Below, in pieces: positions 5,504 to 46,666 of a DNA stretch of 64,000 nucleotides. Made by a program: the position numbers and the translations under genes. How positions within the stretch are numbered: the stretch's first letter is position 1; each line of letters opens with the position of its first letter. Source of the stretch: a virus; UHGV virus genome UHGV-1370141, one strand, 5' to 3'. Under the pieces are notes generated by a model that worked only from the letters and a program-made list of their open reading frames with translations, did no database searches and was not told the DNA's origin.

Positions 5504-5567
5504 AAAAAGAAAAAAAATAAGAAAGTTAACCTACCTCCTTTCGGAGGTAGGTACTTTTATTTATTTC
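5504..5567. terminator. Bidirectional rho-independent terminator (CCTACCTCC-tttc-GGAGGTAGG flanked by A-tract and T-tract)
   Basis: Perfect 9 bp stem with A-rich 5' flank and TACTTTTATTTATTT 3' flank, between convergent genes ending at 5503 (+) and 5561 (-). Confidence 0.6.
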
Positions 5568-6391
5568 GCCAAATCTGCTTCTTTTACAAAAATACCGTCA
5601 GCGTTCAGATAGCCTTTACGGTCTTTGATTTCGTGCCAGGCTAAAGAGAAGCAATGGCGAATGTCAAGACGATAGTAGAGAGCCAGTTTTGCAAGACGGT
5701 ACAAAGCCCAGTTAAGCTGATCGAAACCAGCATCGGAGCGAATAAATGCGGTAGCGAAGATTTCGGTAGCGTGGAGATACAGATGGTGCGGATACCCGTT
5801 GTCATCAAAATGTTCTTCAACGTCAGCGACATCATCCACCTGTAGCTGTAAACCGTGCTCGATGATCTCGGTGGTTGACATTTCTCCAGACAGTTTGTCT
5901 TTACCCAGTTCCAGGATGTTTACCAGAACCACTAACGCATCACCGATACCATCCATGATCAGTTCAGGTTTGTTTTTACTGATACCTGTTGCGATTTCAC
6001 CAAACTCTTCAAAGAATTTCGTGATTTGGGTTTCCAGTTTACCGTTATCGAGGATGCCGCGTTCTTTAGACCAGCCTTTAACATGTTCTGCACAGTTCGC
6101 AATAGAATAGACCGGAACCGATACGGTGTGCATTACTGTACCGTTATATTCGGCACCTGTAAGTTTAAGCGGCGCTTCAATCGTTTCGATGTCCAGTTCC
6201 TGATTACCGGTGTGGCGTTTACCTTCTACGCGAACACGGTTAGTACCAGGATTTACCCCGATGGTGTAGATAGCATCAAACTGAATCGCTTTCTCGTCCA
6301 TAGCGCGTAGTTGTGTGTTAACTTCGTCCAGGAAGTTACCTGGGTTAAGAACGATGTTGTAGATAGCGTTGATGTTAAAACGTTCGCCCAT
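5561..6391 (-). CDS. MazG-like (all-alpha NTP pyrophosphohydrolase) candidate
   Basis: Motif FFEEFGEIATG...PELIMDGIGDALVVLVNILEL resembles the MazG EExxE...ExxD signature; assignment from memory of the family only. Confidence 0.4.
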   Translation of the reverse strand: MGERFNINAIYNIVLNPGNFLDEVNTQLRAMDEKAIQFDAIYTIGVNPGTNRVRVEGKRHTGNQELDIETIEAPLKLTGAEYNGTVMHTVSVPVYSIANCAEHVKGWSKERGILDNGKLETQITKFFEEFGEIATGISKNKPELIMDGIGDALVVLVNILELGKDKLSGEMSTTEIIEHGLQLQVDDVADVEEHFDDNGYPHHLYLHATEIFATAFIRSDAGFDQLNWALYRLAKLALYYRLDIRHCFSLAWHEIKDRKGYLNADGIFVKEADLAK

Positions 6392-6602
6392 TTTAAAACT
6401 CCATTAGATTAAACAAAAAAAGAATAAAGATTAGGGGTGCTACATAAGCACCCCGTGAACTGTTAAATTTTGCAAGCCCCGCCTGAGCAGTTATCGTCTT
6501 CCGTAGTTGGGTCAGCACCCTTCTCTACGGTAGCTTCCGGGTCTAAGCCAGGGATTGCAAATTCGTCAGTTTCTTTAACGGTTTCTACTTTAACTTCTTC
6601 AG

Positions 6603-6827
6603 TCATTTTTTAGTTTCCAAATTTCTTACAAAGGGGTTAATAGTTTTGATTTTAAGGTTAGCGAACGGCGACAGAAGTTTCACCATCGGTGCTAGACCTG
6701 GCGGCGTCTCTTTATATCGCACGATGCGCACTTTCGATTTACCAGGACCCTTACGTACACGGTTGTAGCCAATAAAATATAGAGCACCTGTAAAGAATCT
6801 CAGGCTGTGAAATCGTGGTTTTTTCAT
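6603..6827 (-). CDS. Small basic hypothetical protein (74 aa)
   Basis: ORF in co-directional - strand block; very K/R-rich; no recognisable motif. Confidence 0.3.
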   Translation of the reverse strand: MKKPRFHSLRFFTGALYFIGYNRVRKGPGKSKVRIVRYKETPPGLAPMVKLLSPFANLKIKTINPFVRNLETKK

Positions 6828-6997
6828 CAGACATCCCCAAAAGCCAGAAAGCGTTTACGACCCTTGTGTGGTCCTTTACGCCAGCGACTAGCGATAGTTT
6901 TACGATTTACTTTGCAACGGATTCTCTTATTCAGATTGATATACTTTATAGTAACTTTAATGACATCATTCGTCATAAAGAATTCCCTCATCATTAA

Positions 6998-7444
6998 TTA
7001 ACCCATTAAATGGATTACAACGTCTTTAGTTACTGAGTTTGCAAGTAAGCGGAAGAACTTCATGTAACGGAACATGCTAAAGAAAACCCCAGCGTCATCT
7101 ACAATGACAAGGCTGTATTTTTCCTTTTCTGTACCCATTTGGTAACCGCTGATTTGTGTGATGTTTTCCGGTAAGTCTTCGAGACCCAAACGGAATAGCA
7201 CATCGTCCTCTAAGAACCCTTTTGGGCTAACGAACAACACTTTCCCTTTATGGTTCTTAGCTAACTCGACACCAAAGTCTGTAAGCCCCATCTGCCTACC
7301 TGTACCGTAGCGGATAGTACGAAATTCAGATAAGGCATTGGGACCATAACGATCGGTAAACGGATTATCTTTAGAATCCAGATCGGTTAAACCTTTTGAT
7401 AATTCTTCTACTACGATGTTATAGTTAACATGAGTTTTAGACAT
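6998..7444 (-). CDS. Hypothetical protein (148 aa)
   Basis: ORF in - strand block, 30 nt upstream of thyA. Confidence 0.4.
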   Translation of the reverse strand: MSKTHVNYNIVVEELSKGLTDLDSKDNPFTDRYGPNALSEFRTIRYGTGRQMGLTDFGVELAKNHKGKVLFVSPKGFLEDDVLFRLGLEDLPENITQISGYQMGTEKEKYSLVIVDDAGVFFSMFRYMKFFRLLANSVTKDVVIHLMG

Positions 7445-7474
7445 TTTATCATACCTTTTTAATTAGGTGGTAAT

Positions 7475-8515
7475 TTATACTGCGACGGGGGCCGCAATAT
7501 GTGGATGAGCTTGATAACCAACTAATTCGAAGTCTTCGTATTTGTAATCGAAGATAGAATCCGGTTTACGTTTGATAACCAGTTTAGGTAACGGGTAAGG
7601 CTCACGTGTAAGTTGAAGTTTTGCTTGTTCCAGATGGTTAGAATACAGATGAACGTCTACACCACTATAAACCAACTCGTCTGGAACCATGTTCAGTTGT
7701 TGAGCAACGATGTATGTTAACAACGCGTACGAAGCGATGTTGAACGGTAAACCTAAGAATACGTCGTTTGATCGCATCAGGAAGAAACACGAAAGCTTAC
7801 GACGCGGAATACCTTCACGATCTAAAGTTTCATGAAGTCGTTCTTCATCATCAATATCTTCGTGTTTAATAAGCGGTGCGCTCGCAAATTTTTCCGGTTC
7901 GTTTACTTCGTACCATTCCAGTCTCTCAAGCAGTGACATTTCCGTTGTGTAGAATTGGAAGTAGTTGTGACACGGGTTAAGTGCCATATCGTCCAAGTCA
8001 CTTACGTTCCAGGCACTAACAATAATACGGCGGGAGTCAGGGTCTTCGAGAAGTTGTTGGATAACTTTGCTGATCTGGTCGTGAGATTTGCGATAAATAA
8101 CGATACTTTCTTCAGGGTTGTCCTTTGCAATAGTACCAACGTAGCGATAGCCTCGTTCTCTCAATACGTCTTTACTACGCTCGTCCCAAAGATAAACCAG
8201 TTTGGTATCCATCCATTCCCGCCACTGGTGTCCGTAGACAGGTCCTAATTCCCCTTCCGCATTCGCCCACTCGTTCCAGATTCTTACCCCATTCTCTTGC
8301 AGGTACTTCACGTTAGTGTCACCGTTCAAGAACCATAACAGTTCATGAATGATACTTTTCAGGTGAACCTTTTTCGTAGTAACTAATGGGAAACCTTCTT
8401 TCAGGTCAAAACGTAGTTGGCGACCAAATACAGAAAGTGTCCCTACACCTGTACGGTCTTTCTTAACAACGCCGTTATCCAGAATGTCTTGCATTAACGC
8501 TAAATACTGTTTCAT
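7475..8515 (-). CDS. thyA: Thymidylate synthase (ThyA type) with two insertions
   Basis: Near-identical blocks to E. coli ThyA: [87 protein letters not shown]. 346 aa versus 264 aa. Confidence 0.93.
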
Positions 8516-8823: not shown

Positions 8824-8824
8824 G

Positions 8825-9370: not shown

Positions 9371-9384
9371 TTCCGATACCCGAT

Positions 9385-9849: not shown

Positions 9850-9909
9850 AATTGTTTCTCCGCTTAAACGCAGTCTTGGGAGACATAAGTTTGTTCCCAA
9901 CTGTAAAAA

Positions 9910-10278
9910 TCATTTCAACAAAACAAGATGAATTTGGTATTCGTCATCCGCAGGAGAAGAATAGTCGCCGGTTTCAGGAAACGATAAATCCCCTAGTAGA
10001 CTGTGGAAGGATAATCCGTGTACAGCTTCAACTTTTCGTACAAGCGGAAAACCTGTTCTTTTAATCCAATTGTAATCGACAAACAAAACACCACCAGGAC
10101 TTCCCGAACCTGACCACACGCGAATGTCCACAGTCTTTCCTGAGAAGTTGGCAAGTACAGTGCGCAGTCCTAATAGCACATAACGGGGGAAGGGTACTTC
10201 AATAACTTGTTTTGGTAAAACAAATTCAGGGAATTTAAAACCGAAACCGTTGGGGGTATTAAAAAATTGAGCTTGCAT
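9910..10278 (-). CDS. Hypothetical protein (122 aa)
   Basis: ORF in - block; first gene after an upstream terminator. Confidence 0.35.
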   Translation of the reverse strand: MQAQFFNTPNGFGFKFPEFVLPKQVIEVPFPRYVLLGLRTVLANFSGKTVDIRVWSGSGSPGGVLFVDYNWIKRTGFPLVRKVEAVHGLSFHSLLGDLSFPETGDYSSPADDEYQIHLVLLK

Positions 10279-10295
10279 GGTAATTCTCCTTTAGG

Positions 10296-10336
10296 GTAAA
10301 AAATAAAAATACCCTACTCCCAGACAGGAGTAGGGT
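10296..10336 (-). terminator. Rho-independent terminator (CCCTACTCC-cagaca-GGAGTAGGG plus T-tract on - strand)
   Basis: Inverted repeat followed, on the - strand, by a U-run (plus-strand AAAAATAAAAAT); immediately after the stop of 10342..11001. Confidence 0.5.
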
Positions 10337-10341
10337 AGGTG

Positions 10342-11001
10342 TTACATACGGGTAACTGAATCCCAGTAATCACGAAGATATTCTTGGTCTTCAGGATCTT
10401 TTGGCGTAGCCGGAATATGGCCGTCAAACTCAAACGGAATCACGGACAACACATCCGCAATCTCGTAACGCTCGACTTCCAGTTCAACTTTCACCCAGTC
10501 ACCAACGCTGGTGCTACTACGCATCTCGGTGATAAGATCGTTAAAGTCACCTGAAACTTCAATGGCAGGGTGTCCGGTGGTGATTGTGAAAATATCAATA
10601 TCCCAATGCTTAGCCCCTTTATCGGCTAATTCACCCGGCTCTAAGTGAATACGTTTCACCAGGTGTGCCAAATAACCGTCTTTGTAAAAAGAGAGTGCGG
10701 AACTAATCCCGATATCCGAATTCTCTTCAACCTTTCCGTCCAGGAATTTACGCTTAAGCGTTAGCTGTGCCGTTCCGTCTTCTTTAATACGGATACGACG
10801 ACGCCCACCTTCTATCGGCATGAGAATGTCCATGAACATCTTGGCTTCTTGTGCGTGGAGCCAATCCCATCCCGCTTGCGTCGGTTTTACCCAAACGCAG
10901 TATTCCTTTTCGACTTCGTGTTTAATGGACTCACCAGCAACACGAATGATTTCTTCTTCCTGCGCTTTATCCAGCCGCGCTAGGGTATCGAACAATCCCA
11001 T
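10342..11001 (-). CDS. CYTH-like (triphosphate tunnel) domain candidate
   Basis: N-terminal EVEKEY resembles the CYTH ExExK start; RRRIRIK and LTLKRK basic strands; VELEVERYEI acidic strand. Low confidence. Confidence 0.3.
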   Translation of the reverse strand: MGLFDTLARLDKAQEEEIIRVAGESIKHEVEKEYCVWVKPTQAGWDWLHAQEAKMFMDILMPIEGGRRRIRIKEDGTAQLTLKRKFLDGKVEENSDIGISSALSFYKDGYLAHLVKRIHLEPGELADKGAKHWDIDIFTITTGHPAIEVSGDFNDLITEMRSSTSVGDWVKVELEVERYEIADVLSVIPFEFDGHIPATPKDPEDQEYLRDYWDSVTRM

Positions 11002-15035: not shown

Positions 15036-15711
15036 ATAGCGCAGAATCACGTGGGTCGACACCGACCCACTCTGCCATAAACCGGATGTGTTCCTTGAAC
15101 GGATTCACACCATCGCGTTTAAGCTGCTCTACCGTCTCTTTTGTAAGTTCCGGCGTTAGCAGGGCAGGGTGCGTAATGGTAAAGCTAGGGATAGGCTTTT
15201 TCAGATGTTTCGCATTGAGTTCAATCCAAGCGAACCAATCGTACATTATCCAACAATCCCAAGCTGTCGCTAAACGACCCGGCGTAAGTTCCGAATGCGG
15301 CCACGACACTAACTCAACCTGCACCATATCGTAATAGATACGGAACATCTGCAAGAACGTTTGCATTTCTTGGTCAGTAAGATCAGTATACGGCCAGGTG
15401 TTAATTGTCAGCGTCGGTTTTTCGATAGGCGAATGCATCTCGATTTCGAGTAACATACATTCGAACTCGTTCTTCATCGTCAACAACAGTTCGGTGGGTT
15501 CTGCATTCATCAACGCGCGTTTATCGCGTTTCTGATATTCCTCTTTCCAATTCTCAAACCCCAAGACAGTCGCCCATTCCTCCGTAAAACGACGACGATA
15601 AACGTCGTAATCCATAATTTCCAATCTTTCAGGTTTGATGGCTTTGACCCAACCGATTCGGGTGTCAAACAACGCATCGATATCAATCAAAAAACGTCGA
15701 GAAAATCTCAT
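14989..15711 (-). CDS. Hypothetical protein (240 aa)
   Basis: ORF; 3' end converges with 14571..15035. Confidence 0.45.
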   Translation of the reverse strand: MRFSRRFLIDIDALFDTRIGWVKAIKPERLEIMDYDVYRRRFTEEWATVLGFENWKEEYQKRDKRALMNAEPTELLLTMKNEFECMLLEIEMHSPIEKPTLTINTWPYTDLTDQEMQTFLQMFRIYYDMVQVELVSWPHSELTPGRLATAWDCWIMYDWFAWIELNAKHLKKPIPSFTITHPALLTPELTKETVEQLKRDGVNPFKEHIRFMAEWVGVDPRDSALFSLARPKKDAQTPQS

Positions 15712-16376
15712 GACGGATGGCCTATGTTGTTACCAATGTGCATCGCTTTCAGATACGCAGACCAGGTACGTGTTGCTTTCGAACTGGTACGTTCTGCTCC
15801 CGGCAGGTCAATACGTCCCTTACCGGTTTGACGTAACGATTGATAGAACGCACGTTGTAAAGCTTCGTTACCCCCACGCGCCCACAGAAACTCTTTCAGT
15901 GTCCAGTCGTGACCATCGGAGTACATGATGTACGCTTCTGGGAAAGATACACCAGATGCTTTAGAAGGACCAACAACTTGACCGGAGAGTTTATCACGAA
16001 CTTTGTCGTTCTTCGCTACTGCCATTTTCTTTTCTTGCATCTGCGTTTGACGACGCGCAGGCAAGCGCAATACCAGATGTGGGTAGCGGGTACGATGGAA
16101 AACACCCGTTTTCGGCTCAGTTAACCACAATCGCTGTTCCAGGTTCAAACCTAAAACACGACATAGCTTAACGTTTCGCATGTGGTCGATTTTAACTTTA
16201 CTGCCGACCGGGTTGTAAATCGGTAAGCCTTCACGAAGACGATTAAACTGTTCGTCCGTCATTCGAGCAAAGGCTTTCTTTGCTGCCTCTGCGTTAATCC
16301 CAGAGGGGTCAACCAGGCTTAAGATTTGTAAGGCGTAAGCTTCTGCTTTTTTACGCCGCGCTGGATCGAGTTTCAT
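15708..16376 (-). CDS. Hypothetical protein (222 aa)
   Basis: ORF with 4-nt overlap with the downstream gene. Confidence 0.45.
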   Translation of the reverse strand: MKLDPARRKKAEAYALQILSLVDPSGINAEAAKKAFARMTDEQFNRLREGLPIYNPVGSKVKIDHMRNVKLCRVLGLNLEQRLWLTEPKTGVFHRTRYPHLVLRLPARRQTQMQEKKMAVAKNDKVRDKLSGQVVGPSKASGVSFPEAYIMYSDGHDWTLKEFLWARGGNEALQRAFYQSLRQTGKGRIDLPGAERTSSKATRTWSAYLKAMHIGNNIGHPS

Positions 16377-16650
16377 TTTCTACCGCCTTACGCAAGTTGG
16401 AAAGTGTCCCTGCTTCGAGGGTTTCAATCCAATAACTGATGTCGTCGGTGTTTTCAGGTACGTCGAATTTCACCGGCGGGTAACCGTAGTGTTCGAGTAA
16501 CTTGGAATAATATTCACCGACCTTTAAACAAAAAGATTCACGATCGGGAAAGAAAGTAGCGAAAGTCTCACGAAATGCCGCTGCTGTTTCCAGACTGACG
16601 CTGGCTAAACCTTCGCTTAAGCGCTCCACAATCTCCGTTTGATAACGCAT
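16351..16650 (-). CDS. Hypothetical protein (99 aa)
   Basis: ORF in - block. Confidence 0.35.
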   Translation of the reverse strand: MRYQTEIVERLSEGLASVSLETAAAFRETFATFFPDRESFCLKVGEYYSKLLEHYGYPPVKFDVPENTDDISYWIETLEAGTLSNLRKAVENETRSSAA

Positions 16651-16695
16651 AACGACTCCTTAGCTAGGGTAGGGGATTACCCTACCCTAACGCTT

Positions 16696-18192
16696 TTATT
16701 TCTTTTTGGTGAGGAACTTCGGTTCCAGGCCGTCCACGGCCATACCCAGAATCGTACGGGCAGTTAACGTGCGTTTACCACCTTTCGTTTCTTGGTCTTT
16801 AAACATCCAGTATTCTACGGTGTTCTCCAGAATCTCATTCCAATCCCATTTCTCATCAATGAGTTTGTAGATTTCTTCCATCGTGAGGTGGTATTTAACC
16901 TCTAAACGATGGTAGTTGTTCTGCATGTACGCAATCGCGGCCGTGATTTCTAATGCCCGACGCAGTTTCGGGTTATCGTCGATCATGTCGCGAATCGTCG
17001 TACGCTGGAATTTAACACCAGGCAGAATCTGGAGTTCTTTAATGGAACCACCGCTACCGCTGGATGTAAATCCAAATTCGGATTTTTTCAGAGTGTCACT
17101 CAGGTAATGCCACAGGCTCAGGTGATACAGTAGACCCATCTCTTGCGAGAAGATCATCTGGAACTTCACGCCCGTGTGACCGCCTTTAGCACGGTACTGC
17201 GTAAAGGTGATAACTTTCAGGTCGTTAACCGACGCGTTCATGGCTTTTGAACGTGCGGTTGGGTAAAGTTCTTCGTTAACACCGGTCTGGGCGTTATAAC
17301 TCTGGTCTTTTTTCAGCTCGCCTGATTTTGTCGCAACAATAAACGAGTTAGTCAAGAAACTTAATTGACGACGAGGAATCCCTGCGAATTTGAGATCGTC
17401 GTTCGCATCGTCCAGCAGTTTCGCGTTTGCTTTCTGTCCTTGACGACCGCCCGCCATCGCCTTACCGGAGTCATCGGCCATCTGTGCAACAAAGCCCATG
17501 TAGAAACCACCACGGGCAAACGCAGACGGCCAACGGCTCATCATGTTCGATTTCTGTAAGGCGTCGTGGGCGTTGAGGATGTTCTGATCGGAATCACCGA
17601 TATCCGTTTTAGCGTGCTTGTCTTCCAGAGAAGACGAGTGCCACTCCGACAGGGAGTCGATAGAATACAGCCACGGGTCAAGGATTTCTTTTTGCTTACG
17701 ACGAACCGGGTCAAGGAACGGCGTTACACGCGTTTTACCAGACATATACTGCTTGAAGCGTTTTTCCACTTCATCACGAATATAGTCACTGTAATATTGT
17801 TCCCCTGGCATCACGTCAGAACCAACGAGGTTATAACGACCTTCGTGAATAAGTTCCAGTACCGAAGTTCCATCGTCAATACCGTTGGCGTGCATGGCAG
17901 AAATATAACCGGTCTCTAAGCGATCGAGGGCAGCAGACACTTCGGTATCGTATTTCGAACCCCACTCCGCTTTATAGCGTTGCAGGATTTGGAAGATACA
18001 GAAATCCAACAGTGTGGATTTGAAGGTGTTACCACGACCCGCGAAACCCATGATGTGGGCAAAACCACCGTTAAGGTAGTATAAACCATCTTCGCCTCTT
18101 TCGTAGTTGCCTAAGGCGTGGTCCATGATGGTATAAACGTTAAAACGAGGACGAATTACTTCACCGATAACTTGCTTAGTTGGGCCTGCCAT
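16696..18192 (-). CDS. RecA-superfamily recombinase candidate (UvsX-like non-canonical P-loop)
   Basis: GGFAHIMGFAGRGNTFKSTLLDF...QRYK resembles, from memory, T4 UvsX GG..G..ILAGPSKSFKS...RQYP; later IDSL. Protein is about 100 aa longer than UvsX. Confidence 0.35.
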   Translation of the reverse strand: MAGPTKQVIGEVIRPRFNVYTIMDHALGNYERGEDGLYYLNGGFAHIMGFAGRGNTFKSTLLDFCIFQILQRYKAEWGSKYDTEVSAALDRLETGYISAMHANGIDDGTSVLELIHEGRYNLVGSDVMPGEQYYSDYIRDEVEKRFKQYMSGKTRVTPFLDPVRRKQKEILDPWLYSIDSLSEWHSSSLEDKHAKTDIGDSDQNILNAHDALQKSNMMSRWPSAFARGGFYMGFVAQMADDSGKAMAGGRQGQKANAKLLDDANDDLKFAGIPRRQLSFLTNSFIVATKSGELKKDQSYNAQTGVNEELYPTARSKAMNASVNDLKVITFTQYRAKGGHTGVKFQMIFSQEMGLLYHLSLWHYLSDTLKKSEFGFTSSGSGGSIKELQILPGVKFQRTTIRDMIDDNPKLRRALEITAAIAYMQNNYHRLEVKYHLTMEEIYKLIDEKWDWNEILENTVEYWMFKDQETKGGKRTLTARTILGMAVDGLEPKFLTKKK

Positions 18193-19360: not shown

Positions 19361-19373
19361 AAAGTAAAAGCTA

Positions 19374-19410
19374 CCCCTAGACCACAAGGTCTAGGGGTAA
19401 TCTTTATTTT
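19374..19410 (+). terminator. Rho-independent terminator (CCCCTAGACC-acaa-GGTCTAGGGG plus T-tract)
   Basis: Perfect 10 bp stem followed by TAATCTTTATTTT, 14 nt after the stop of 18605..19360. Confidence 0.55.
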
Positions 19411-21262: not shown

Positions 21263-21294
21263 TTAAAATAAAGCAACCCTAGCCGAAGCTAGGG
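21263..21294 (-). terminator. Rho-independent terminator (CCCTAGC-cgaa-GCTAGGG; U-run on - strand)
   Basis: Inverted repeat with plus-strand A-run on its 5' side, immediately after the stop of 21301..21789. Confidence 0.45.
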
Positions 21295-21300
21295 TGTATG

Positions 21301-21789
21301 TTAGTCGATCTTGACGTAATTTGGGTAATTAGCTTTCAACCACTCCCACAGGTGTAATGCGAGCATACCTTGGTCGTAGCTAATAATATCCACAATACCG
21401 TGTGAGTGTGCTTCATTACCCCAAATTTGACTATAGAAACGACGCCACTCACCTTCTGCATATGGTGGTACAATTGCTGGGATAAAACCGTTATGGTATT
21501 CGTTAATTAGTGATTGTAAAGTTTCAATACGGATTCCGTATAACCGTCTATCGATGAACGATTTTGTGATCCCACCAAAGAAACCAACAAAGAAATCATC
21601 CAGACTCGTTATAAGTCGGGCTCTGTAATTATTTTCGATGTAGTCGGCGGCAACGCCAGCCATCCACGGAGTATCGACGACCATTGGCGCGAGTTTATTT
21701 CTGATCGTGGCATGTACACGGTCGGTATGGTTGAGGAATTCATGAATAATGTCGGAATTTTTCAAAGCGATAATTTGATTTAAATTCAT
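21301..21789 (-). CDS. Hypothetical protein (162 aa)
   Basis: ORF with AAGGAG SD. Confidence 0.4.
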   Translation of the reverse strand: MNLNQIIALKNSDIIHEFLNHTDRVHATIRNKLAPMVVDTPWMAGVAADYIENNYRARLITSLDDFFVGFFGGITKSFIDRRLYGIRIETLQSLINEYHNGFIPAIVPPYAEGEWRRFYSQIWGNEAHSHGIVDIISYDQGMLALHLWEWLKANYPNYVKID

Positions 21790-26085: not shown

Positions 26086-26130
26086 ACGTTAAAAAGAAAA
26101 TACCTCCTGTACCCCGAAGGATACAGGAGG
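26086..26130 (-). terminator. Terminator-like hairpin (CCTCCTGTA...TACAGGAGG) with U-run on - strand
   Basis: 9 bp inverted repeat with plus-strand A-run on 5' side, immediately after the stop of 26136..26591. Confidence 0.4.
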
Positions 26131-26135
26131 CGTTG

Positions 26136-26591
26136 TCAGTTCAAACACATTGTCAGATACTGATCGTAGGCGTCTAATAAAGCTTGCCGGTCAGAGCGAT
26201 AATTCCACAACAACGAATTCAGTTTACGTGATAAATCCCGACTGATTTCTTGTGGCGTTAACGCTTTGTCGTCTAATAACATCTTTTCTGGAACGGAATG
26301 TAATTTAGGAATTTCAAATCGTTCGCAGATAGGTGCTAACATCGGTGGATTCCACCCGCGTTTGACTGCTTGTTGATTTAAGTTTCGTGTGTAAAGATAA
26401 ACGTAATAAGCGTATGTATTCACATCCGCAACATATTCCCGCATCGCGTCTTTATCAATTTTCCAATTTAGCATGATAGGCGGCGCTGGCGGAGGTTGTA
26501 ACGCAGTATAGGATGGCCGTTTACCGGGTTCTCCATAGCCATTACTCACCAAACCCACGCACAAAATCATGATGAATAACAGCGATTTCAT
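26136..26591 (-). CDS. Secreted (signal-peptide) hypothetical protein (151 aa)
   Basis: N-terminus MKSLLFIMILCVGLVSNGYG is signal-peptide-like. Confidence 0.45.
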   Translation of the reverse strand: MKSLLFIMILCVGLVSNGYGEPGKRPSYTALQPPPAPPIMLNWKIDKDAMREYVADVNTYAYYVYLYTRNLNQQAVKRGWNPPMLAPICERFEIPKLHSVPEKMLLDDKALTPQEISRDLSRKLNSLLWNYRSDRQALLDAYDQYLTMCLN

Positions 26592-27123: not shown

Positions 27124-28497
27124 ATGTTAGACTTACAAGGTTTTATTCAGATACCGGCTCTGTTTGACAATCAGGACGGCGTCACCGCTCCGGTAGGTGA
27201 GCTGTCTGATCTGACCCTCTCGTACGCGAAGAGTAAACAGACGTTTACTAAATCCAATCTGCAAGTGCAGTTGGTGACATTTACGTCTAAACGAGAAAAA
27301 CAGACGGTTGTTGTTCCAGCCGAGTTTTCTGATCATATTCTAACCGTTTCTCAATGGATTTACCAGCAAGCCATCTTGGGGAATCTGAGAAATGACGAAC
27401 TTGAATTCCAGCGCCTATTATTAGGTCAATTCCAAACAACCATTTCCGGTGTCCAGTCCGGTGCGATGATCCAGACGAACAGTAATTGGTTCCCACGTTG
27501 GGTGAGCTGGAAATATGAAGCAACTGCAGATCAAGTACAAGATGACACTGATGTAGATAACCAAATCATAGTTTGGTTCTCGGATGAAGACTTCGACCAG
27601 GACTACACGGGTTTTGAAATCGAAGTACAGATGCCGATTGAGCCAATCGACACATTCTTGGCCACAAAGTCAGTCGTTGAAAAAGCGATGGAAGGGTTTA
27701 ACCTTACCGAACACCATAAGAAAATCAACGAGTTAATGGCAGGGTTCCCGTATACTGCCATCCAAACTAACTACTACACCTGGCATGACCAAGAAAACTA
27801 CGAGTCAACACTGGTTATTCCAATGTCGGTTATCATTTACGGACGTGCAGGAAAAAACCCAACGAAAATAAAGCAAGCGTTGCGTGAACATATTCTTGCA
27901 AACTCCAGCTTTACGGTTCCGATCGGGGTGAAGGTATTCCCTGAGATCTTTACCACTACGAAATTCACAATGGTTCCGGGGTGGAAAATCCGTGGTATAC
28001 CGAATGAGGAAGACGTGGCGGCTCTCTATTCCCCCATCCTTCCATATGATTTCTGGGTCAAAGCCATTACAAAGTTTGGGGAATGGTCTGATCAGTCTGT
28101 TGCGGAAAGAAATAGTAAAACGGTAAGCAAACCGACGACGGATGTTACCGATTTACCGACCGTGTACAAATCACTGAACATGGTGGTTATCAGTGGTCCT
28201 GAAAACGACACTCGTAAGAATACCTTACACGAAACGTTACCAGACTACGCACTGATTGCAACAACAAACCCAGACATTGCACGAATGTCGAAATCCACCA
28301 CAGAATGGTTAGCGTTGTTCTTCCAGGCGTTAATAGCAGCGGAAGAATACCATCCGTATCAGACCAGTCTGGATGTCGTGAAACTCGTTGATGAAGCCGA
28401 TCCAGATAACTATTTCTGGGTGTTCGAATACGATAACGTCGAATATCGCATACTGTCTCGTAAATCGAAATGGTACACTGAAATCGACGAGGAGTAA
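27124..28497 (+). CDS. Hypothetical protein (about 458 aa)
   Basis: Start placed at the internal Met (MLDLQGF) so it does not overlap the divergent gene start at 27098; start uncertain. Confidence 0.45.
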   Translation: MLDLQGFIQIPALFDNQDGVTAPVGELSDLTLSYAKSKQTFTKSNLQVQLVTFTSKREKQTVVVPAEFSDHILTVSQWIYQQAILGNLRNDELEFQRLLLGQFQTTISGVQSGAMIQTNSNWFPRWVSWKYEATADQVQDDTDVDNQIIVWFSDEDFDQDYTGFEIEVQMPIEPIDTFLATKSVVEKAMEGFNLTEHHKKINELMAGFPYTAIQTNYYTWHDQENYESTLVIPMSVIIYGRAGKNPTKIKQALREHILANSSFTVPIGVKVFPEIFTTTKFTMVPGWKIRGIPNEEDVAALYSPILPYDFWVKAITKFGEWSDQSVAERNSKTVSKPTTDVTDLPTVYKSLNMVVISGPENDTRKNTLHETLPDYALIATTNPDIARMSKSTTEWLALFFQALIAAEEYHPYQTSLDVVKLVDEADPDNYFWVFEYDNVEYRILSRKSKWYTEIDEE

Positions 28498-28500
28498 TGA

Positions 28501-29124
28501 ATGGCTACGCGTTTACCTCTTTTGGTTCCCGTTAACACAACGGGTTTATTTAAGGTAAAAACACCGTTTACGTTAGCCGAAACGGTTATCTTCACGGTGG
28601 AGGCATCACGTACCTTCCCAGATTTAGTACGTCAGAATATTGATGTTTACAACGAGTATTACAAGCCCGTTGGGTTGGAGCGAGAAGAATATCTTGCTGA
28701 TGCTACCGTTAACGCGTCTATTCTTACGTTTAAATCACGCGATGGTCAAGTCGTTTATATCCCCGACACTTACGTAGAATCGTGCCCCGGTTTATCGGGA
28801 ATCGCGTACCAGCGTAATGTGATGGTGGTGGACTTATCGTTTGTACCGGATTATGTAGATGTGTCGGTGATGACTAAAGACGTTTCGGATATTCTTACCC
28901 GTACGTTGGGTATCGACCCGAAAGTCGAAATCACGACCATGGAGTATGAAGGGAAAGTGACGGAGGAGCAACACCTGCAAATGGAAGCGGCTCGGAAAAG
29001 GAAAATTCGAGAGGCTATTCCGTTGTCAGAACAGGTTACTTCGTTGACAAACGAAAACAAAAAATTAAAAGAGTTAAACAACCAGATGTTAGAGATTCTT
29101 AAAGCTAACGGGTTAGTTAACTAA
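28501..29124 (+). CDS. Hypothetical protein with C-terminal coiled coil (207 aa)
   Basis: ORF starts 4 nt after the preceding stop; C-terminus QVTSLTNENKKLKELNNQMLEILKANG; followed by a terminator. Confidence 0.45.
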   Translation: MATRLPLLVPVNTTGLFKVKTPFTLAETVIFTVEASRTFPDLVRQNIDVYNEYYKPVGLEREEYLADATVNASILTFKSRDGQVVYIPDTYVESCPGLSGIAYQRNVMVVDLSFVPDYVDVSVMTKDVSDILTRTLGIDPKVEITTMEYEGKVTEEQHLQMEAARKRKIREAIPLSEQVTSLTNENKKLKELNNQMLEILKANGLVN

Positions 29125-29170
29125 AAGAAATTACCCTACTCCTTTTCGGGAGTAGGGTAGCTTTTATTTT
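29121..29170. terminator. Bidirectional rho-independent terminator (ACCCTACTCC-ttttcg-GGAGTAGGGT with T-tract)
   Basis: Perfect 10 bp stem followed by AGCTTTTATTTT; between convergent genes ending 29124 (+) and 29169 (-). Confidence 0.6.
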
Positions 29171-29717
29171 AAATGTCGACTTCTAGTTTACGGTAATCAA
29201 TGACGCCTTGAGCAATCATAGCAGCAACATCGTTCCAAGTACGAAAAATGAAGTAAACGGTATCCCCGTTTAAAAAGATATTGGATTCTTTATCCGGGAA
29301 ATCATTTTCGCTGAGGTAGTAGTAGGGTTTGTCGAATGGGAAGTCACGCTCATCAGAGGAACCAAGTACCGCATAACGATTGCCACAGTCGAACAGAATC
29401 TTCCAACCTGATACTTCACTATTAACATCAACACGATCGACGATTTCAACAGTAATCGGAGAATGGTCAAGAAAACTGATCGTGATTCCCTCGCAATACC
29501 GTTTGAATCGCCAAATATCTGTGGGTACAATTTCAGACGCTGCTATAAGGGAATAAAGTTGTGTTGTGGTGATCTTTTTGTAAACGCTATTGCCGTCTCC
29601 CAAACGGTCAAATAAGAAATTAGCCAGGAAATTTATATCCTTTAAACGTGTACGGAAAACAGAACCACGGCGAATACCATAAGCCAGGTGGGTTAAATAT
29701 TCAGATGATGGAAACAT
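29169..29717 (-). CDS. Hypothetical protein (182 aa), paralogue of 29780..30712
   Basis: Shared blocks with the neighbouring gene: N-terminal MFPSSEYL/MTFPSEVI and NIFLNGDTVYFIFRTW / NIGLNGGVVYFILSNW. Confidence 0.45.
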   Translation of the reverse strand: MFPSSEYLTHLAYGIRRGSVFRTRLKDINFLANFLFDRLGDGNSVYKKITTTQLYSLIAASEIVPTDIWRFKRYCEGITISFLDHSPITVEIVDRVDVNSEVSGWKILFDCGNRYAVLGSSDERDFPFDKPYYYLSENDFPDKESNIFLNGDTVYFIFRTWNDVAAMIAQGVIDYRKLEVDI

Positions 29718-29730
29718 TTTAATACTCCTA

Positions 29731-29770
29731 AGATGGAAAAAAGAATTAACCCTACTCCCGGAGGAGTAGG
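29731..29770 (-). terminator. Rho-independent terminator (CCCTACTCC-cgga-GGAGTAGGG; U-run on - strand)
   Basis: Same stem sequence as at 29134 and 10311; plus-strand A-run on 5' side. Confidence 0.5.
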
Positions 29771-29779
29771 GGACTTAAA

Positions 29780-30712
29780 TTACTTTTTGGCTTGACCCAG
29801 GTTTTCAAGAACCAGTTCACGAATGTACTTTTGAGTACGTTTCTTCGGCGGTAAAGCCATAAGGGTGTCAACAATTTCCTGACCGCCGATAACCTTGCTG
29901 ACGAGTTGTTGAACTTGGAAGAGTTCCGCTTCTTCGTCACTGATCTCATTAGCTTGGTCTTTCTGACACAGCGCTTCTACCAGGTCAGCTACGGATATTT
30001 CTTTTTCGTCACCAGGGAAATCCAGGTTTAACGATTCGAAAACATCACGTTTAACGAGCACAGATTTCAGATCATCGTAGTCTTCGCAAACGGCGACTTC
30101 TGTACCAGGGACGGTTTCTTCTTCGTCTTGATCTTCATTCTCAGCGGAGAGGTAATTTACTTCTGTTGCGTGGAACGTTGCGTCAGCTTTTCTCAGGACG
30201 TAGCTCACATGCGCCCAGTTGCTCAGGATGAAGTAGACGACGCCCCCATTTAATCCGATATTGCCTTGGCGAAGCTCGAGAGCAATTTCCAGGCGGCGCG
30301 AAATCTGCCCCAAGTCAAAGAAAGACTCGTCGCGTGCCGCAACAACTTCGTACTGATTCACCCCTTGTTCTACAACAACGAACCAGTTATCCGGGAGAGG
30401 ATATGGGTTGGGCATGAGAGAATGTTCGATCCCTACGCTTGGGTCAACAGTAACGGATGTATGCCGCATTCCCATGGAGAAGTTGAACATATCCCCATTT
30501 TGAACCGCAATTGCATTGTCGATTGGAAGAATTTTGGTGGTACGATCGATAGAGAAAATCACTTCTTGCGTAATTGAAGACTGATTACTGCCTAGGAAAT
30601 GGTTGCGCAGAAAGGCAGCGGTTGCACCTACGCTGGTTTGCAGCATATGGTAGTTATAACGACGACGTAGAGTGTTAGCCAGTTCGTAAATTACTTCAGA
30701 TGGAAAAGTCAT
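29780..30712 (-). CDS. Hypothetical protein (310 aa) with acidic C-terminal half, paralogue of 29169..29717
   Basis: See paralogue; acidic stretch ENEDQDEEETVPGTEVAVCEDYDDL. Confidence 0.45.
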   Translation of the reverse strand: MTFPSEVIYELANTLRRRYNYHMLQTSVGATAAFLRNHFLGSNQSSITQEVIFSIDRTTKILPIDNAIAVQNGDMFNFSMGMRHTSVTVDPSVGIEHSLMPNPYPLPDNWFVVVEQGVNQYEVVAARDESFFDLGQISRRLEIALELRQGNIGLNGGVVYFILSNWAHVSYVLRKADATFHATEVNYLSAENEDQDEEETVPGTEVAVCEDYDDLKSVLVKRDVFESLNLDFPGDEKEISVADLVEALCQKDQANEISDEEAELFQVQQLVSKVIGGQEIVDTLMALPPKKRTQKYIRELVLENLGQAKK

Positions 30713-30765
30713 TTTAATAGTCCTCTTTAGGTTTGTTCAAATCAACTAAGGGTTTTGTAAAAAAG

Positions 30766-31245
30766 TTAAAAGAGTGGGAGGTTACGCCATTGACCTACGG
30801 AATAGAAAGCCTTCGGATGTTTACGAATATAGTCCTTCGCTTCTTTCGGTAACCAGCGTTGACCTGCACGTTTCTGCTGGGCAACAATAACAGCCAGCAG
30901 CAAATAAGGATTCTTTGACCCAGGGAATTTTGCATTCGTTTCTAGCGCAATATCCAACATCGATTCCCATCCCAGTGTTTTAGACTGAGCGGGTAAACGG
31001 TCTTCGATATACATCAACCAGTTCATGATTTCTCTGGGTTTAAATGGACAGGTGTAGTTCGCCCAGCTTATCATGAAAAACTTAATAATCTTTGCAAATA
31101 CCCACAACGGTATAGCTACGAATACACAGAAAATCACCATTTGTTTCGTAGGGGCGTTTACGAACGTCACTAACAGTAGAACGGTGATTACCTCTAATAC
31201 CACGAACCAAAAGCGGGTTGGGTAACGCCAGATAAACTTCAACAT
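30766..31245 (-). CDS. Membrane protein with two N-terminal TM helices (159 aa)
   Basis: FWFVVLEVITVLLLVTFV and VIFCVFVAIPLWVFAKIIKFF hydrophobic helices, then a basic C-terminal region; two genes from the secreted SLT lysin candidate. Confidence 0.45.
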   Translation of the reverse strand: MLKFIWRYPTRFWFVVLEVITVLLLVTFVNAPTKQMVIFCVFVAIPLWVFAKIIKFFMISWANYTCPFKPREIMNWLMYIEDRLPAQSKTLGWESMLDIALETNAKFPGSKNPYLLLAVIVAQQKRAGQRWLPKEAKDYIRKHPKAFYSVGQWRNLPLF

Positions 31246-31264
31246 ACCTTTGCTCCTTTAGGGG

Positions 31265-31302
31265 AATAAATAAAAGTACCCCTAATCCGATTGGATTAGG
31301 GG
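31265..31302 (-). terminator. Rho-independent terminator (CCCCTAATCC-gatt-GGATTAGGGG; U-run on - strand)
   Basis: Perfect 10 bp stem with plus-strand A-run on 5' side, right after the stop of 31309..31818. Confidence 0.5.
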
Positions 31303-31308
31303 CAAGTA

Positions 31309-31818
31309 TTAGAAGAACGGTTGGTTTGGAATCACAGCAAATTCCAGAACGAAGATGTGTTCAGGGGCACCTGCCTGACGCCAGATTTTGTGCGTAGTCG
31401 CCAGTTTCTCCAGAATCGTCAGGAAGCTACGCTGGCAGTAGGTGTTCTCACCCAACAGCAAATTCTGTAACTCTACAGTGGCTTCCATATACGCTTCTTT
31501 AAAGACCTGATTCGGATTGTATTTACCGGTATGATGCCACAACAGAACTTTCCCTTGCTCTGTGTCTCTCACGGCCGGACGTAACCCGCAAATCCACAAC
31601 AAGGCAAGGTTGACGTTCCAGTCAAACTCTAAGCCTTCTTCTTCGTCATCACCGAAAGCCGTTTTAAGGGCATCGTAAAACTCATGTCGCGTTGCAAAGT
31701 CTTCGTCGGACTTTATCTGGTCTTCGTTACTGCTACGAACGATACTGTACACGTCCTGGGCAGTAATTTGGGTAGCCTTAGTGATACCTTTATACCAATC
31801 GGTTACAACGATGCTCAA
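31309..31818 (-). CDS. Hypothetical protein (169 aa)
   Basis: ORF with 4-nt overlap with the upstream lysin-candidate gene. Confidence 0.4.
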   Translation of the reverse strand: MSIVVTDWYKGITKATQITAQDVYSIVRSSNEDQIKSDEDFATRHEFYDALKTAFGDDEEEGLEFDWNVNLALLWICGLRPAVRDTEQGKVLLWHHTGKYNPNQVFKEAYMEATVELQNLLLGENTYCQRSFLTILEKLATTHKIWRQAGAPEHIFVLEFAVIPNQPFF

Positions 31819-38518: not shown

Positions 38519-38596
38519 TTTAATTCTCCTTTAGGTAAAACAAGTCGTAAAAAGGACCCCGGACGAATCGGAACGTACCGGGGCCAAGACTACACA

Positions 38597-42294: not shown

Positions 42295-42361
42295 TTCTAT
42301 TTCCTTCTTAACAAAAGCCGCGACTAAAGCGCGGCAGTTAGAGAAAGTGTATTTTCACTTA

Positions 42362-43513: not shown

Positions 43514-43541
43514 TTTTACTCTCCTTTAGGGTTTTCGTTAC

Positions 43542-44081: not shown

Positions 44082-44108
44082 GATATTTTCTCCTTTAGGT
44101 TTTTTTAC

Positions 44109-44846
44109 TTACGCGGTTTTAATTAACAGCAGATAGTCCTTCGTAATCTCAGCACAACCCCACCCTCTCATCGCGGCGATTTTACGAAGATCAATTTTCT
44201 CGTGATATTTCAATAAGGGATCGTCCGGGTTAATTTCAACCAGGTGTGTGGCTTTAGAAATCGTTTCCACATCTGGTATTTGTTTTGCTAAGTCCGATGC
44301 AATTAGTTCAATAACGCGGTATCCGTTTAACACAGAAACATAAATGCGTAAACCATATAGCGTGCCCTCGTCTTCTAATGGACAAAGATCGATGCCGGGT
44401 CCAAGCAGTGATAACTCGACGTTATCGGGAAGGTTTTCTGCATTTCGGAGTAACCCTATCCCATTTCTAAACAGAGGGAAGTAAGAGAATAGTGGTGGTA
44501 AAGCCCAACCATTCCCAATAAGCACATCAGCGATACTCGTAGGTGTGTTCGCAAGAAGACGAATGTGGTCAGCCACAACTTCAAGTTCGGCATCACTGAT
44601 CAACTTATAGATTAACATGACACTGGTTTCGGTATTAATAACAAAGAAGACGCGGTTGGCGTAACTGCCTATCACGTATTCGTCAATCATACAGTCGATA
44701 ACGTCACTGTCTGGATAATCTTCAGGTTTAATTGTTCCAGCATCGATTAACTTAGCAGGTTGCGATTGTTTTAATAGTTCTTTAACCACCGTAGAAGAAA
44801 GTTCTAAACTGGTGTTGGTAAAGATATCGTCTAACAATTCTCTCAT
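44109..44846 (-). CDS. Member 4 (divergent) of the paralogue family (C-terminus GWGCAEITKDYLLLIKTA)
   Basis: Start set to internal Met (MRELLDD) preceded by AGGAGA SD; weaker match to the C-terminal module. Confidence 0.45.
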   Translation of the reverse strand: MRELLDDIFTNTSLELSSTVVKELLKQSQPAKLIDAGTIKPEDYPDSDVIDCMIDEYVIGSYANRVFFVINTETSVMLIYKLISDAELEVVADHIRLLANTPTSIADVLIGNGWALPPLFSYFPLFRNGIGLLRNAENLPDNVELSLLGPGIDLCPLEDEGTLYGLRIYVSVLNGYRVIELIASDLAKQIPDVETISKATHLVEINPDDPLLKYHEKIDLRKIAAMRGWGCAEITKDYLLLIKTA

Positions 44847-45231
44847 GGGGTTTATTCTCCTAAAAAGGGATAAGGAAGTCACTACGTTCCTCTGGGAAGA
44901 GTATGTCGGTATACTACGTATACCTCCGCTATTTATATCCGTATACATAATGCCCCCTACCCCCTACCGGTATCCCGAGTAGCAGAATAAAGGGACAATC
45001 TGTAAATTTTAAGTAATACTATGATTACCGTGGTAGATAAGGTGAATAGTGACGGAAGAGTCTCACTACCTCTTCGATACCGTCTTTCTGTTCAGCGAAC
45101 ATGGTAGCCTCCACTATTGTTAGTATCCGTTTCGAAAAGAAACGTGCCCATAGGGGTTGAAGTGCGAGTTCAACCCCTATTCACTTAAGTAAAATATATC
45201 TGAATCTATTTCCGATCTAAGGAACGACCTA

Positions 45232-46197
45232 ATGGAGAAATCCAGCGTTGATTTTTTCTCAATTGGTATCGTCGCGGAAGACAAACCCCGTGGTACAGAT
45301 CGGGTAAAAGTGATACCAATTGAAACCAACTTTGCGAACCCTACCGTTGTACAATCGGTTTCCTCAACCGCTGAAAAGGTACACGATACTGGGGGTGCTA
45401 CTGACAACCTAACGATTAAAACAGGTAACACGATTACCGCAAAGTGGTGGAAGTTTAATTCCAACCGAATTAATTCCCCAGACGTTAAGCGAGAAGATTA
45501 CGTTATCTTGCTACGTCTAGGGCAAACCGATATTTATTTTTGGATTGATCTGAATTTTGCTAACGTTAAGCGATTAGAAGATGCGGTTTACGCGTGGTCT
45601 GCTGACCCTGAAAACCAGATGGCGGATGACTTGTCGAATGCGTATGTGTTAAACGTCTCAACGATTGACAAACACGTTACCCTAAGAACAAGTATGGTGA
45701 ACGGGGAGAAAGCGGCGTGGTTATTCCAATTCGATAACGCTAACGGGTCGTGGCAGTGCGTTGACCATAAAGGGAATAAGTATTACATTAACTCGGTGGA
45801 AGACGATTTAGGTTTTGAGAACGCGATGCTTTCGAAAGTGAACATCAACAAAGAAGATGCATTCATTTACGCAAAACGTTCGATTAACCTGGAAACGAAA
45901 ACGATTAATGAGAAATGCGAAGTTCGGAATACCGAAGCGTCGAAATCGGTTACCTTTAAAACAGAAACCTGGCTAACTGAAGCTTCTGGTTCAACAACGT
46001 ATAAAACGCCGAACTTCAAGCAAGAAGGTAATGAAGCGATGTTCACCGGTAATTTGGAAGTTGCTAAGAACTTCAAATACGGTGGTACGGGCGAAGGCGT
46101 GGGTATCTTTACGGTTAAGGATGCGGTTATTTCCGGTATTACCTTCAGCGTACACATCCATGACGGCGTCCATGGCCCAACTTCAGGCCCACGCTGA
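45232..46197 (+). CDS. Hypothetical protein (321 aa), possibly structural
   Basis: First + strand gene after the divergent intergenic region; T/N/K-rich beta-like composition. Confidence 0.45.
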   Translation: MEKSSVDFFSIGIVAEDKPRGTDRVKVIPIETNFANPTVVQSVSSTAEKVHDTGGATDNLTIKTGNTITAKWWKFNSNRINSPDVKREDYVILLRLGQTDIYFWIDLNFANVKRLEDAVYAWSADPENQMADDLSNAYVLNVSTIDKHVTLRTSMVNGEKAAWLFQFDNANGSWQCVDHKGNKYYINSVEDDLGFENAMLSKVNINKEDAFIYAKRSINLETKTINEKCEVRNTEASKSVTFKTETWLTEASGSTTYKTPNFKQEGNEAMFTGNLEVAKNFKYGGTGEGVGIFTVKDAVISGITFSVHIHDGVHGPTSGPR

Positions 46198-46315
46198 TTT
46201 CCCCTTTTTCTTACGTTGGTATTATATATTGTGACCTGACGTTGGTAAGCTTCTTATCAACACTTTTCTTAAACCTCATCGTTTAGTTAAGCAGGCCACT
46301 TTTTTCGCGCACTCA

Positions 46316-46345
46316 CTCCTCCCTTCGGGGAGGAGCTATCTTATG
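46316..46345 (+). terminator. Terminator-like hairpin (CTCCTCCC-ttcg-GGGAGGAG)
   Basis: Perfect 8 bp GC stem with tetraloop followed by a moderately U-rich tail; downstream of 45232..46197. Confidence 0.4.
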
Positions 46346-46396
46346 CTTTGGTTGTAACACGATACAGTCCTTCCTTTCTTTAACTGGAGAGTAGCT

Positions 46397-46606
46397 ATGG
46401 CTATTAAAGAATTCTCTTCTGCTGAACACATTCCTGAAGAGTTCAAGAAAATTGGTAACGTAAGCGCTTTCGGTGATACCGTAGACGACGTTACTGCTAA
46501 GCTGGCTGTCGAAGCTGAAAAGATCGGCGGTGAAGCGTTTAAAGTTATCGGTATTTCCGGTAACAACAAACTGCACGGTAACGCGATTGTCTACAAAAAA
46601 GACTAA
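46397..46606 (+). CDS. DUF1471 (YdgH/BhsA/McbA)-like small protein without signal peptide
   Basis: FGDTVDDVTAKLAVEAEKIGGEAFKVIGISGNNKLHGNAIVYKK resembles, from memory, the E. coli BhsA/YcfR core (...GAKSFRITSVTGPNTLHGTAVIYK); GGAGAG SD; flanked by hairpins on both sides. Confidence 0.5.
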   Translation: MAIKEFSSAEHIPEEFKKIGNVSAFGDTVDDVTAKLAVEAEKIGGEAFKVIGISGNNKLHGNAIVYKKD

Positions 46607-46608
46607 GT

Positions 46609-46666
46609 GAAAAAAAAACGTGCTACTCCTACCCTCTAAGAGGGTAGGAGGTTACTTATTTTTTTC
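46609..46666. terminator. Bidirectional rho-independent terminator (CTCCTACCCT-ctaag-AGGGTAGGAG; A-run 5', T-run 3')
   Basis: Perfect 10 bp stem between convergent genes ending at 46606 (+) and 46656 (-). Confidence 0.6.

Follow-up and report, generated by a model that had tools for sequence, protein, structure and literature searches.

Six intergenic hairpins in a 64,000-nt stretch of the virus genome UHGV-1370141 (the window, meaning the whole of the DNA analysed; 94.6% coding, 5.4% intergenic) are built on a common CCTAC-type stem and are probably terminators, forming the transcript 3′ ends of a jumbo phage of the SPN3US/Erskinevirus type, whose genome is transcribed by multisubunit RNA polymerases (RNAPs) of its own. 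What is observed directly is the sequence, fold and position of these elements, their conservation and covariation, and the bias in their words; from these data we infer both termination and the phage transcription machinery as the source of the constraint. The design that would be common to the clade comprises an A-rich lead, often with a T-A/A-T base, a C-rich and almost purely pyrimidine 5′ arm with its few A's in TAC words (CCCTACTCC, CTACCTACTCC), a short free loop, a complementary G/A-rich 3′ arm, and a T-rich tail usually with TTAT. Non-homologous sites would then look alike because only a small repertoire of words is permitted in the terminators of the clade, a restriction that could act on the RNA or on the phage polymerase. 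Stems would change conservatively by compensated C-G<->U-A replacements with the polarity of the arms kept, and local duplication of a gene plus its terminator and template switching within the hairpin may contribute.

All six hairpins were found where a first-pass annotation of the window had placed them, as follows:

5529-5552, T-rich tails on both strands: hairpin ACCTACCTCC/tttc/GGAGGTAGGT, −22.1 kcal/mol, z −5.9; between the convergent genes 4940-5503(+) and 5561-6391(−, MazG-like).
10310-10337, minus strand: hairpin TACCCTACTCC/cagaca/GGAGTAGGGTA, −20.6 kcal/mol; 4 nt past the stop codon of 10342-11001(−), and followed on the minus strand by TTTTTATTTTTT and then the ribosome-binding site of 9910-10278(−).
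16665-16689: purine-arm-first hairpin TAGGGTAGGG/gatta/CCCTACCCTA, a relative of the family; between the UvsX-like gene 16696-18192(−) and 16351-16650(−), with a T tail on the plus strand only, both neighbouring genes on the minus strand, and the Shine–Dalgarno (SD) sequence GCTAAGGAG directly after it on the minus strand.
29132-29159, both strands: hairpin TACCCTACTCC/ttttcg/GGAGTAGGGTA, tails GCTTTTATTTT (+) and ATTTCTTTTA (−), −23.2 kcal/mol, z −6.2; between the convergent genes 28501-29124(+) and 29169-29717(−).
29750-29771, minus strand: hairpin CCCTACTCC/cgga/GGAGTAGGG, tail TTAATTCTTTTTT, −18.3 kcal/mol; 8 nt past the stop codon of 29780-30712(−).
46626-46650, T-rich tails on both strands: hairpin CTCCTACCCTC/taa/GAGGGTAGGAG, −21.6 kcal/mol; between the convergent genes 46397-46606(+) and 46656-48134(−).

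The stems are perfect and 9-12 bp long, with RNA folding energies of −18 to −25 kcal/mol (z −4 to −7). Three of the hairpins (10310, 29132 and 29750) are identical over the 9 bp CCCTACTCC/GGAGTAGGG and the remaining three are variants, the purine-first hairpin at 16665 among them, and the first-pass description of 'nearly the same stem' therefore holds for six related elements, with strict identity limited to three. Their placement at gene 3′ ends was confirmed throughout, the stem starting 4-9 nt past the stop codon of one or both neighbouring genes in 6/6 cases; the flanks are A-rich upstream and T-rich downstream, and a (C)TTTTATTT-type tail is present in five of the six. A GC-rich hairpin 3′ of a gene with a U-rich tract directly after it, the configuration of an intrinsic terminator, is found at 5529, 10310, 29132, 29750 and 46626, and is lacking in the sense orientation at 16665. 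Of the A- and T-run flanks described as bidirectional at several sites, T tails on both strands were recovered at 5529, 29132 and 46626, but on the plus strand only at 16665; a palindrome being the same on both strands, one such element can stop transcription from both sides between convergent genes. The further claim that other terminators in the window have unrelated stems is correct as regards their words, which differ, but not their style, which is shared by hairpins at 19372, 21276, 31279, 46316 and 56544. The idea of a backup stop codon, with GTAG or GTAA in the 3′ arms giving TAG or TAA, was rejected, as the TAG at 10310 is out of frame with the upstream gene.

A megablast search of a 3-kb segment of the window (28000-31000) against 50,697 deposited phage records returned no match, and the lineage was therefore identified through proteins. 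The SbcC-like protein of the window shows 69% identity to Erwinia phage Asesino and 58% to SPN3US; matches to the respective PHROGs were obtained for the large virion proteins and for the UvsX-like recombinase, and 15708-16376(−) matches phrog_3233, RNAP beta subunit (E=2e-93), representing a fragment of the phage's own RNAP; multiple RNAP beta fragments are annotated in the SPN3US genome. Judged by these protein matches, the window belongs to the SPN3US/Erskinevirus group of phiKZ-like jumbo phages with their own RNA polymerase, and its lineage probably represents a genus, as yet undescribed, close to Erskinevirus and Seoulvirus. Its close kin are three uncultured IMG/VR genomes, R1 (3300014543_000002; nucleotide identity to the window mostly 94-97%), R2 (3300045988_113438; roughly 78-88%) and R3 (3300029126_000001; roughly 78-88%), the lineage being known only from IMG/VR contigs. 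Searches of the window with Rfam (gathering thresholds) and ARAGORN gave no match.

Word preference in the window and across the clade

The word CCCTACYCC occurs seven times in the window against 0.5 expected, a count reached in 0/100 shuffles, and 7/7 matches are intergenic although intergenic DNA makes up only 5.4% of the sequence. Sharing of k-mers among 21 hairpin arms of the window, compared pairwise and against arms with shuffled base order, is likewise elevated, with 72 pairs sharing 5-mers against 34.7 (p=2e-4), 24 sharing 6-mers against 10.2 (p=0.0014) and eight sharing 7-mers against 2.4 (p=0.007). A bias of the same kind was found in the complete SPN3US genome, where 49 perfect T-tailed hairpins with stems of at least 8 bp were compared with expectations from shuffled arms: TACC is present in 18/49 (z=7.2) and CTAC in 12, each with an expectation of 4.2, depletion is seen for the reversed words CATC and TCAC, and CCCTCTTACC recurs three times.

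The preference is seen across the clade. The hairpin CCCTACTCC-N3-8-GGAGTAGGG was recovered in 77 IMG/VR stretches, 43 of them in contigs of at least 200 kb and 56 with genes homologous to those of SPN3US or the window; the corresponding counts were 8, 1 and 1 for the reversed word CCTCATCCC, 15, 2 and 1 for a TA->AT swap (CCCATCTCC), and 58, 4 and 3 for an all-pyrimidine A->T control (CCCTTCTCC), the difference between the real hairpin and the controls being significant both in the large-contig counts (Fisher 7e-11) and in those of gene homology (Fisher 3e-19). Carriers include SPN3US and phiEaH2, with 6-7 copies each in R2 and R3 and two in SPN3US. The earlier suggestion that reuse of the stem does not reflect independent chance is thus upheld, both by the non-randomness within the window and by recurrence of the word in many related jumbo-phage genomes relative to matched controls.

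Comparison with a host-type sample, 25 hairpins identified by the same criteria in 150 kb of Escherichia coli K-12, indicates a likeness to Rho-independent terminators in the GC-rich hairpin followed by a U-rich tract, with the upstream A tract making the element bidirectional, and also differences. Arms of the E. coli hairpins mix purines and pyrimidines, whereas strongly purine/pyrimidine-asymmetric arms are seen in 13/18 window hairpins against 3/25 in E. coli (Fisher 9e-5) and in 28/59 SPN3US hairpins against the same 3/25 (0.003); the 5′ arm is at least 75% pyrimidine in 9/18 T-tailed window hairpins, and pyrimidine-first arms outnumber purine-first arms 23:5 in SPN3US (p=9e-4). The plain T run of the host type is replaced in the window by a tail that is typically interrupted (TTTTATTT), with words reused between sites; TTAT is present in the tail of 13/18 T-tailed window hairpins, typically as (G)CTTTTATTT, and of 6/25 E. 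coli hairpins (Fisher 0.002).

Conservation and evolution of the sites

Conservation of stem and of position in relatives, a check proposed at first pass, gave different answers for the two. All 18 window hairpins examined sit at the same positions in R1, R2 and R3. In SPN3US and Asesino, where sites were mapped via the upstream gene, most have a strong hairpin whose stem has drifted, usually with a T-rich tail and mostly with arm polarity kept. At 10310 the window has CCCTACTCC and SPN3US CCCTCTCC; at 29132 the window TACCCTACTCC corresponds to CTACCTACTCC in both SPN3US and Asesino; at 46626 the window CTCCTACCCTC corresponds to ACCCTACTCCC in SPN3US and CTCCTACTCCC in Asesino; and at 19372 the window TACCCCTAGACC corresponds in relatives to ACCCTACTCC, CTACCTACTCC or, in SPN3US, TACCCACTCCC. 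The site after the UvsX-like gene (16665) keeps its purine-first hairpin just upstream of the SD sequence in SPN3US and other relatives, with an A-T to C-G compensation among R1-R3.

An alignment of 10 genomes at 46626 revealed compensatory double changes in 7/11 pairs, nearly all C-G<->U-A, and covariation of this kind indicates that the window hairpins are selected structures evolving by transitions, a mode of change in which a pyrimidine arm and a purine arm are preserved automatically. The exact word is carried at non-orthologous sites in different lineages, namely 46626 in SPN3US, 19372 in the more distant L087, L089 and L090 contigs, and 29132 in the window lineage, which argues for an attractor-like word within a small allowed set and not for one inherited copy.

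Loops behave differently from stems between close relatives. In 7/18 hairpins (10310-10337, 16665-16689, 29132-29159, 29750-29771, 31279-31302, 45150-45180 and 46626-46650) the loop of the window is exactly or almost exactly reverse-complemented in R1 (L079, L093, L103), the arms and flanks being unchanged, and the loop at 16665 flips again between R2 and R3. Stems of the flipped hairpins are 10-12 bp in 6/7 cases, the seventh, at 29750, being 9 bp. The flips look like the product of template switching inside the hairpin or of recombination between its arms, occurring far more often than point substitution, and template switching of this kind would copy changes from arm to arm, keeping stems perfect. 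Work by Monttinen and Loytynoja (2022, PMC8794818) deals with template-switch mutations that create, perfect and invert RNA hairpins. Loop inversion with the arms still perfectly paired is reportedly the signature; that work concerns the evolution of hairpins and not the sharing of words between different sites, and we know of no report of this signature for phage terminators.

A local duplication is seen at one locus. Genes 29169-29717(−) and 29780-30712(−, N-terminal part) are diverged tandem paralogs with 28% identity over ~180 aa, an identical CCCTACTCC hairpin follows each, and the hairpins at 29132 and 29750 bracket 29169-29717. Only one gene with one hairpin occupies this locus in SPN3US and in Asesino.

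Relation to known terminators and competing explanations

The nearest described counterparts are those of phiKZ-type phages. Mapping of 133 termination regions in phiKZ by ONT-cappable-seq (Putzeys et al. 2024, PMC10914365) determined that transcripts end at a conserved hairpin, 5'-BCCYCCCC HWWD GGGRRGG BYTTATKYYGT-3' (PMC10914365), and a resembling motif (motif A) is present at 59/132 termination sites of 201phi2-1, for which eight selected terminators were examined in a terminator-trap assay in P. chlororaphis, several being confirmed according to the authors (PMC11512511). Both are jumbo phages with their own virion and non-virion multisubunit RNAPs, and their hairpins resemble those of the window in pairing a pyrimidine 5′ arm rich in C with a purine 3′ arm rich in G across a short loop, in ending in a T-rich tail that contains TTAT, and in lying in intergenic DNA just 3′ of genes, some being bidirectional between convergent genes. 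The window clade differs from phiKZ in its TAC-interrupted words, CCCTACTCC or CTACCTACTCC, in place of an uninterrupted C run, in its longer stems (9-12 bp), and in its affiliation, which is SPN3US/Erskinevirus-like with Erwinia and Salmonella as hosts, its transcript ends being predicted from sequence. The window hairpins are accordingly viewed as a probable clade-specific variant of the phiKZ/201phi2-1 kind of terminator that does not fit the phiKZ consensus.

Several observations weigh against the reading of the hairpins as terminators of a clade-specific design. A search of the window with the phiKZ consensus (BCCYCCCC HWWD GGGRRGG) matched no CCCTAC hairpin; with up to 3 mismatches only 46316 and 56544 (match at 56548) were recovered, both at 3, a result equalled in 14/100 shuffles. 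A literature search for terminators or transcript ends of SPN3US-like or enterobacterial Chimalliviridae phages returned nothing relevant, and termination is accordingly a prediction here. The hairpin at 16665 carries the family word with no sense T tract and is unlikely to terminate transcription on the sense strand. The purine-first hairpin GGAGTAGGG-loop-CCCTACTCC, which had been expected to be rare, was found in 69 IMG/VR stretches (L118-L186), most in AT-rich contexts, 46 without detectable SPN3US-type genes, never with more than two per contig, and one in a contig of 211,215 bp; ~25 of the 69 represent a single orthologous locus, found in contigs of roughly 235 kb, whose loop is either atttaat or attaaat, again a flip. 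The purine-first duplex is therefore common in phage hairpins, and the popularity of the word is in part not specific to the clade. Stability was also rejected as the cause of TAC being preferred over ATC, since a hand sum of nearest-neighbour stacking values gave a difference of only ~0.1 kcal/mol.

From the bias in base order and in arm polarity it follows that some sequence-level constraint exists, and a phage or host factor that recognises the shared stem (the CCCUACUCC hairpin) could be its source, whether a termination or antitermination factor, an endoribonuclease, a 3′-end protector or a factor exporting mRNA from the phage nucleus, the hairpins serving as binding sites besides or instead of terminators. 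Such a factor would be compatible with a base order biased beyond composition (TACC at z=7.2 in SPN3US, reversed words depleted), with an arm polarity unlike that of the E. coli sample, with recurrence of the exact word at non-orthologous sites in different lineages, and with its presence at 16665 outside a sense-strand terminator. It is nonetheless unlikely: the loops, where proteins usually contact an RNA hairpin, vary from 3 to 8 nt in length without a consensus, unlike the conserved loops of boxB/nut- or coat-protein-operator-like hairpins, and they flip orientation between near-identical genomes, which makes a loop-reading protein improbable; stems drift freely at orthologous sites, as with SPN3US CCCTCTCC for window CCCTACTCC; no candidate protein was identified; and the word is present in hairpins of many other phage contigs, most without SPN3US-type genes. 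Recognition by a common factor, raised at first pass, thus finds backing in base order and polarity and is opposed by the behaviour of the loops.

A bolder form of sequence recognition, doubtful on present evidence, is that the biased words and fixed polarity (pyrimidine first, A's only as TAC) are read directly by the non-canonical phage RNAPs or by a phage factor devoted to the task, which would act ahead of hairpin closure on the non-template DNA or on the 5′ arm while it is single-stranded. Were this true, SPN3US-like and phiKZ-like phages would use sequence-specific termination or 3′-end signals distinct from host terminators, and these signals could label transcripts as those of the phage, for instance so that they are protected or exported from the phage nucleus.

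Spread of a small repeated element by transposition or copying, in the manner of repetitive extragenic palindromes (REP), miniature inverted-repeat transposable elements (MITE) or the promoter-early stem-loop (PeSL) cassettes of T4-type phages, said to have been described by Arbiol, Comeau and Krisch in 2010, would attribute the likeness of the hairpins to descent or gene conversion and not to function, and is considered highly unlikely. The two identical copies around 29169-29717, a 28% paralog of its neighbour, fit duplication of a gene with its terminator; exact-word copy number appears to depend on lineage, at 6-7 in R2 and R3, the two closest full-length relatives, against two in SPN3US; and the loop flips attest to template switching or recombination of DNA at the hairpins. 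Against this, copies have in common nothing past the 9-11 bp stem and generic A/T runs, are without terminal repeats or target duplications, and show no presence/absence polymorphism, each being at the same site in R1-R3. Flanks of the three identical window copies share only A/T richness, as do those of 83 IMG/VR copies, in which similar flanks were seen just among orthologous copies of related contigs. Identity of the bracketing stems despite 28% protein identity argues for maintenance and not for recent copying. PeSL cassettes resemble the window hairpins as repeated stem-loops at gene boundaries of a large virulent phage, two window copies bracketing the single lineage-specific gene 29169-29717, but the window copies share no conserved promoter part or extended flank, and their positions are stable. 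Synteny breaks between the window and R1-R3 lie elsewhere than at the hairpins (about 9.5, 21.4-22.2, 40.8, 42.9-44.1 and 45.0-45.1 kb), and a role as borders of exchangeable gene cassettes was also rejected on this ground, the one bracketed open reading frame being a tandem paralog. Because flanks are unrelated and sites fixed, the repeated element suggested by the first-pass annotation is rejected.

Least probable is that nothing specific is involved, any stable GC-rich hairpin serving and the repeated words being a by-product of low-complexity C-rich arms, for although many k-mers are shared even between shuffled arms (a null mean of 34.7 pairs with 5-mers) and the all-pyrimidine control is also found often among phage hairpins (58 stretches), the order tests reject it in the window (p=2e-4 to 7e-3) and independently in SPN3US, and matched control words are 5-10x rarer overall (reversed 8 and TA->AT 15 against 77; all-pyrimidine 58) and 10-40x rarer in large jumbo-phage contigs; pure chance or composition is largely refuted.

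PhiKZ-type jumbo phages rely for transcription on RNA polymerases that resemble no cellular enzyme, and sequence-conserved terminators have been shown in phiKZ and 201phi2-1. If the window hairpins are terminators, they suggest that the habit is shared by a distant clade, known from phages of Salmonella and Erwinia, but with another consensus, one that is order-specific, strand-polar and unlike sampled E. coli terminators, turning the question of why jumbo-phage terminators are alike into a comparative one with two independent consensus sequences. The motif would offer quick annotation of operon ends in SPN3US-like genomes and a source of compact, possibly bidirectional terminators for synthetic biology; were it merely a terminator style, the finding would be an ordinary one, already anticipated by phiKZ.

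Further hairpins and elements of the window

Further hairpins, apart from the six, are found at the following positions:

19372-19399, tails on both strands: hairpin TACCCCTAGACC/acaa/GGTCTAGGGGTA between convergent genes, tails CTTTATTTT (+) and CTTTTACTTTTTATTTT (−), −24.9 kcal/mol.
21276-21295, minus strand: hairpin ACCCTAGC/cgaa/GCTAGGGT, 5 nt past the stop codon of 21301-21789(−), tail TGCTTTATTTT.
26102-26131, minus strand: pyrimidine-first hairpin (G)CCTCCTGTAyCC/ttcg/GGrTACAGGAGG(T), 4 nt past the stop codon of 26136-26591(−), tail ATTTTCTTTTT.
31279-31302, minus strand: hairpin CCCCTAATCC/gatt/GGATTAGGGG, 6 nt past the stop codon of 31309-31818(−), tail (TA)CTTTTATTTATT.
46316-46335, plus strand: all-pyrimidine-arm hairpin CTCCTCCC/ttcg/GGGAGGAG.
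56544-56568, plus strand: hairpin ACCCCTCCC/tgtaatg/GGGAGGGGT, tail ATCCATTTTATTT, after 52322-56506(+).

In SPN3US (L105-L109) the loop is TTCG in 19/59 T-tailed hairpins, with its complement CGAA in four more; these loops are much less dominant among the T-tailed hairpins of the window.

An element (A/T)CC(C)TAAAGGAG precedes the start codons of at least six genes by a few bases on the minus strand of the window (10279-10300, 30713-30735, 31246-31270, 38519-38540, 43514-43541 and 44082-44108). In the copies that follow the hairpins of 10310 and 31279 it matches the initial 6-7 nt of the 5′ arm of the preceding hairpin (TACCCTA and CCCCTAA), and it may be an extended ribosome-binding or transcription-start motif.

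Purine-first G-rich hairpins just upstream of the SD sequence between co-directional genes are present in the window at 2684-2703 and 16665-16689, and the same arrangement is seen in L087 (11499-11522), L092 (11507-11526) and SPN3US (about 189445-189490). These hairpins are without a following T tract in the window and in most relatives, the arrangement after the UvsX-like gene is kept clade-wide, and they may constitute a second functional class acting in RNA stability, processing or translational control.

The divergent intergenic region 44949-45231 (283 nt), with no Rfam or tRNA match, could be a leader or small RNA. It contains a direct repeat, CCCCCTACCCCCTACC, at 44953-44969, which is not a hairpin, together with a small hairpin, cgtttcgaaaagaaacg, and a 12-bp hairpin at 45150-45180 that lacks a T tail and shows several compensatory changes among close relatives.

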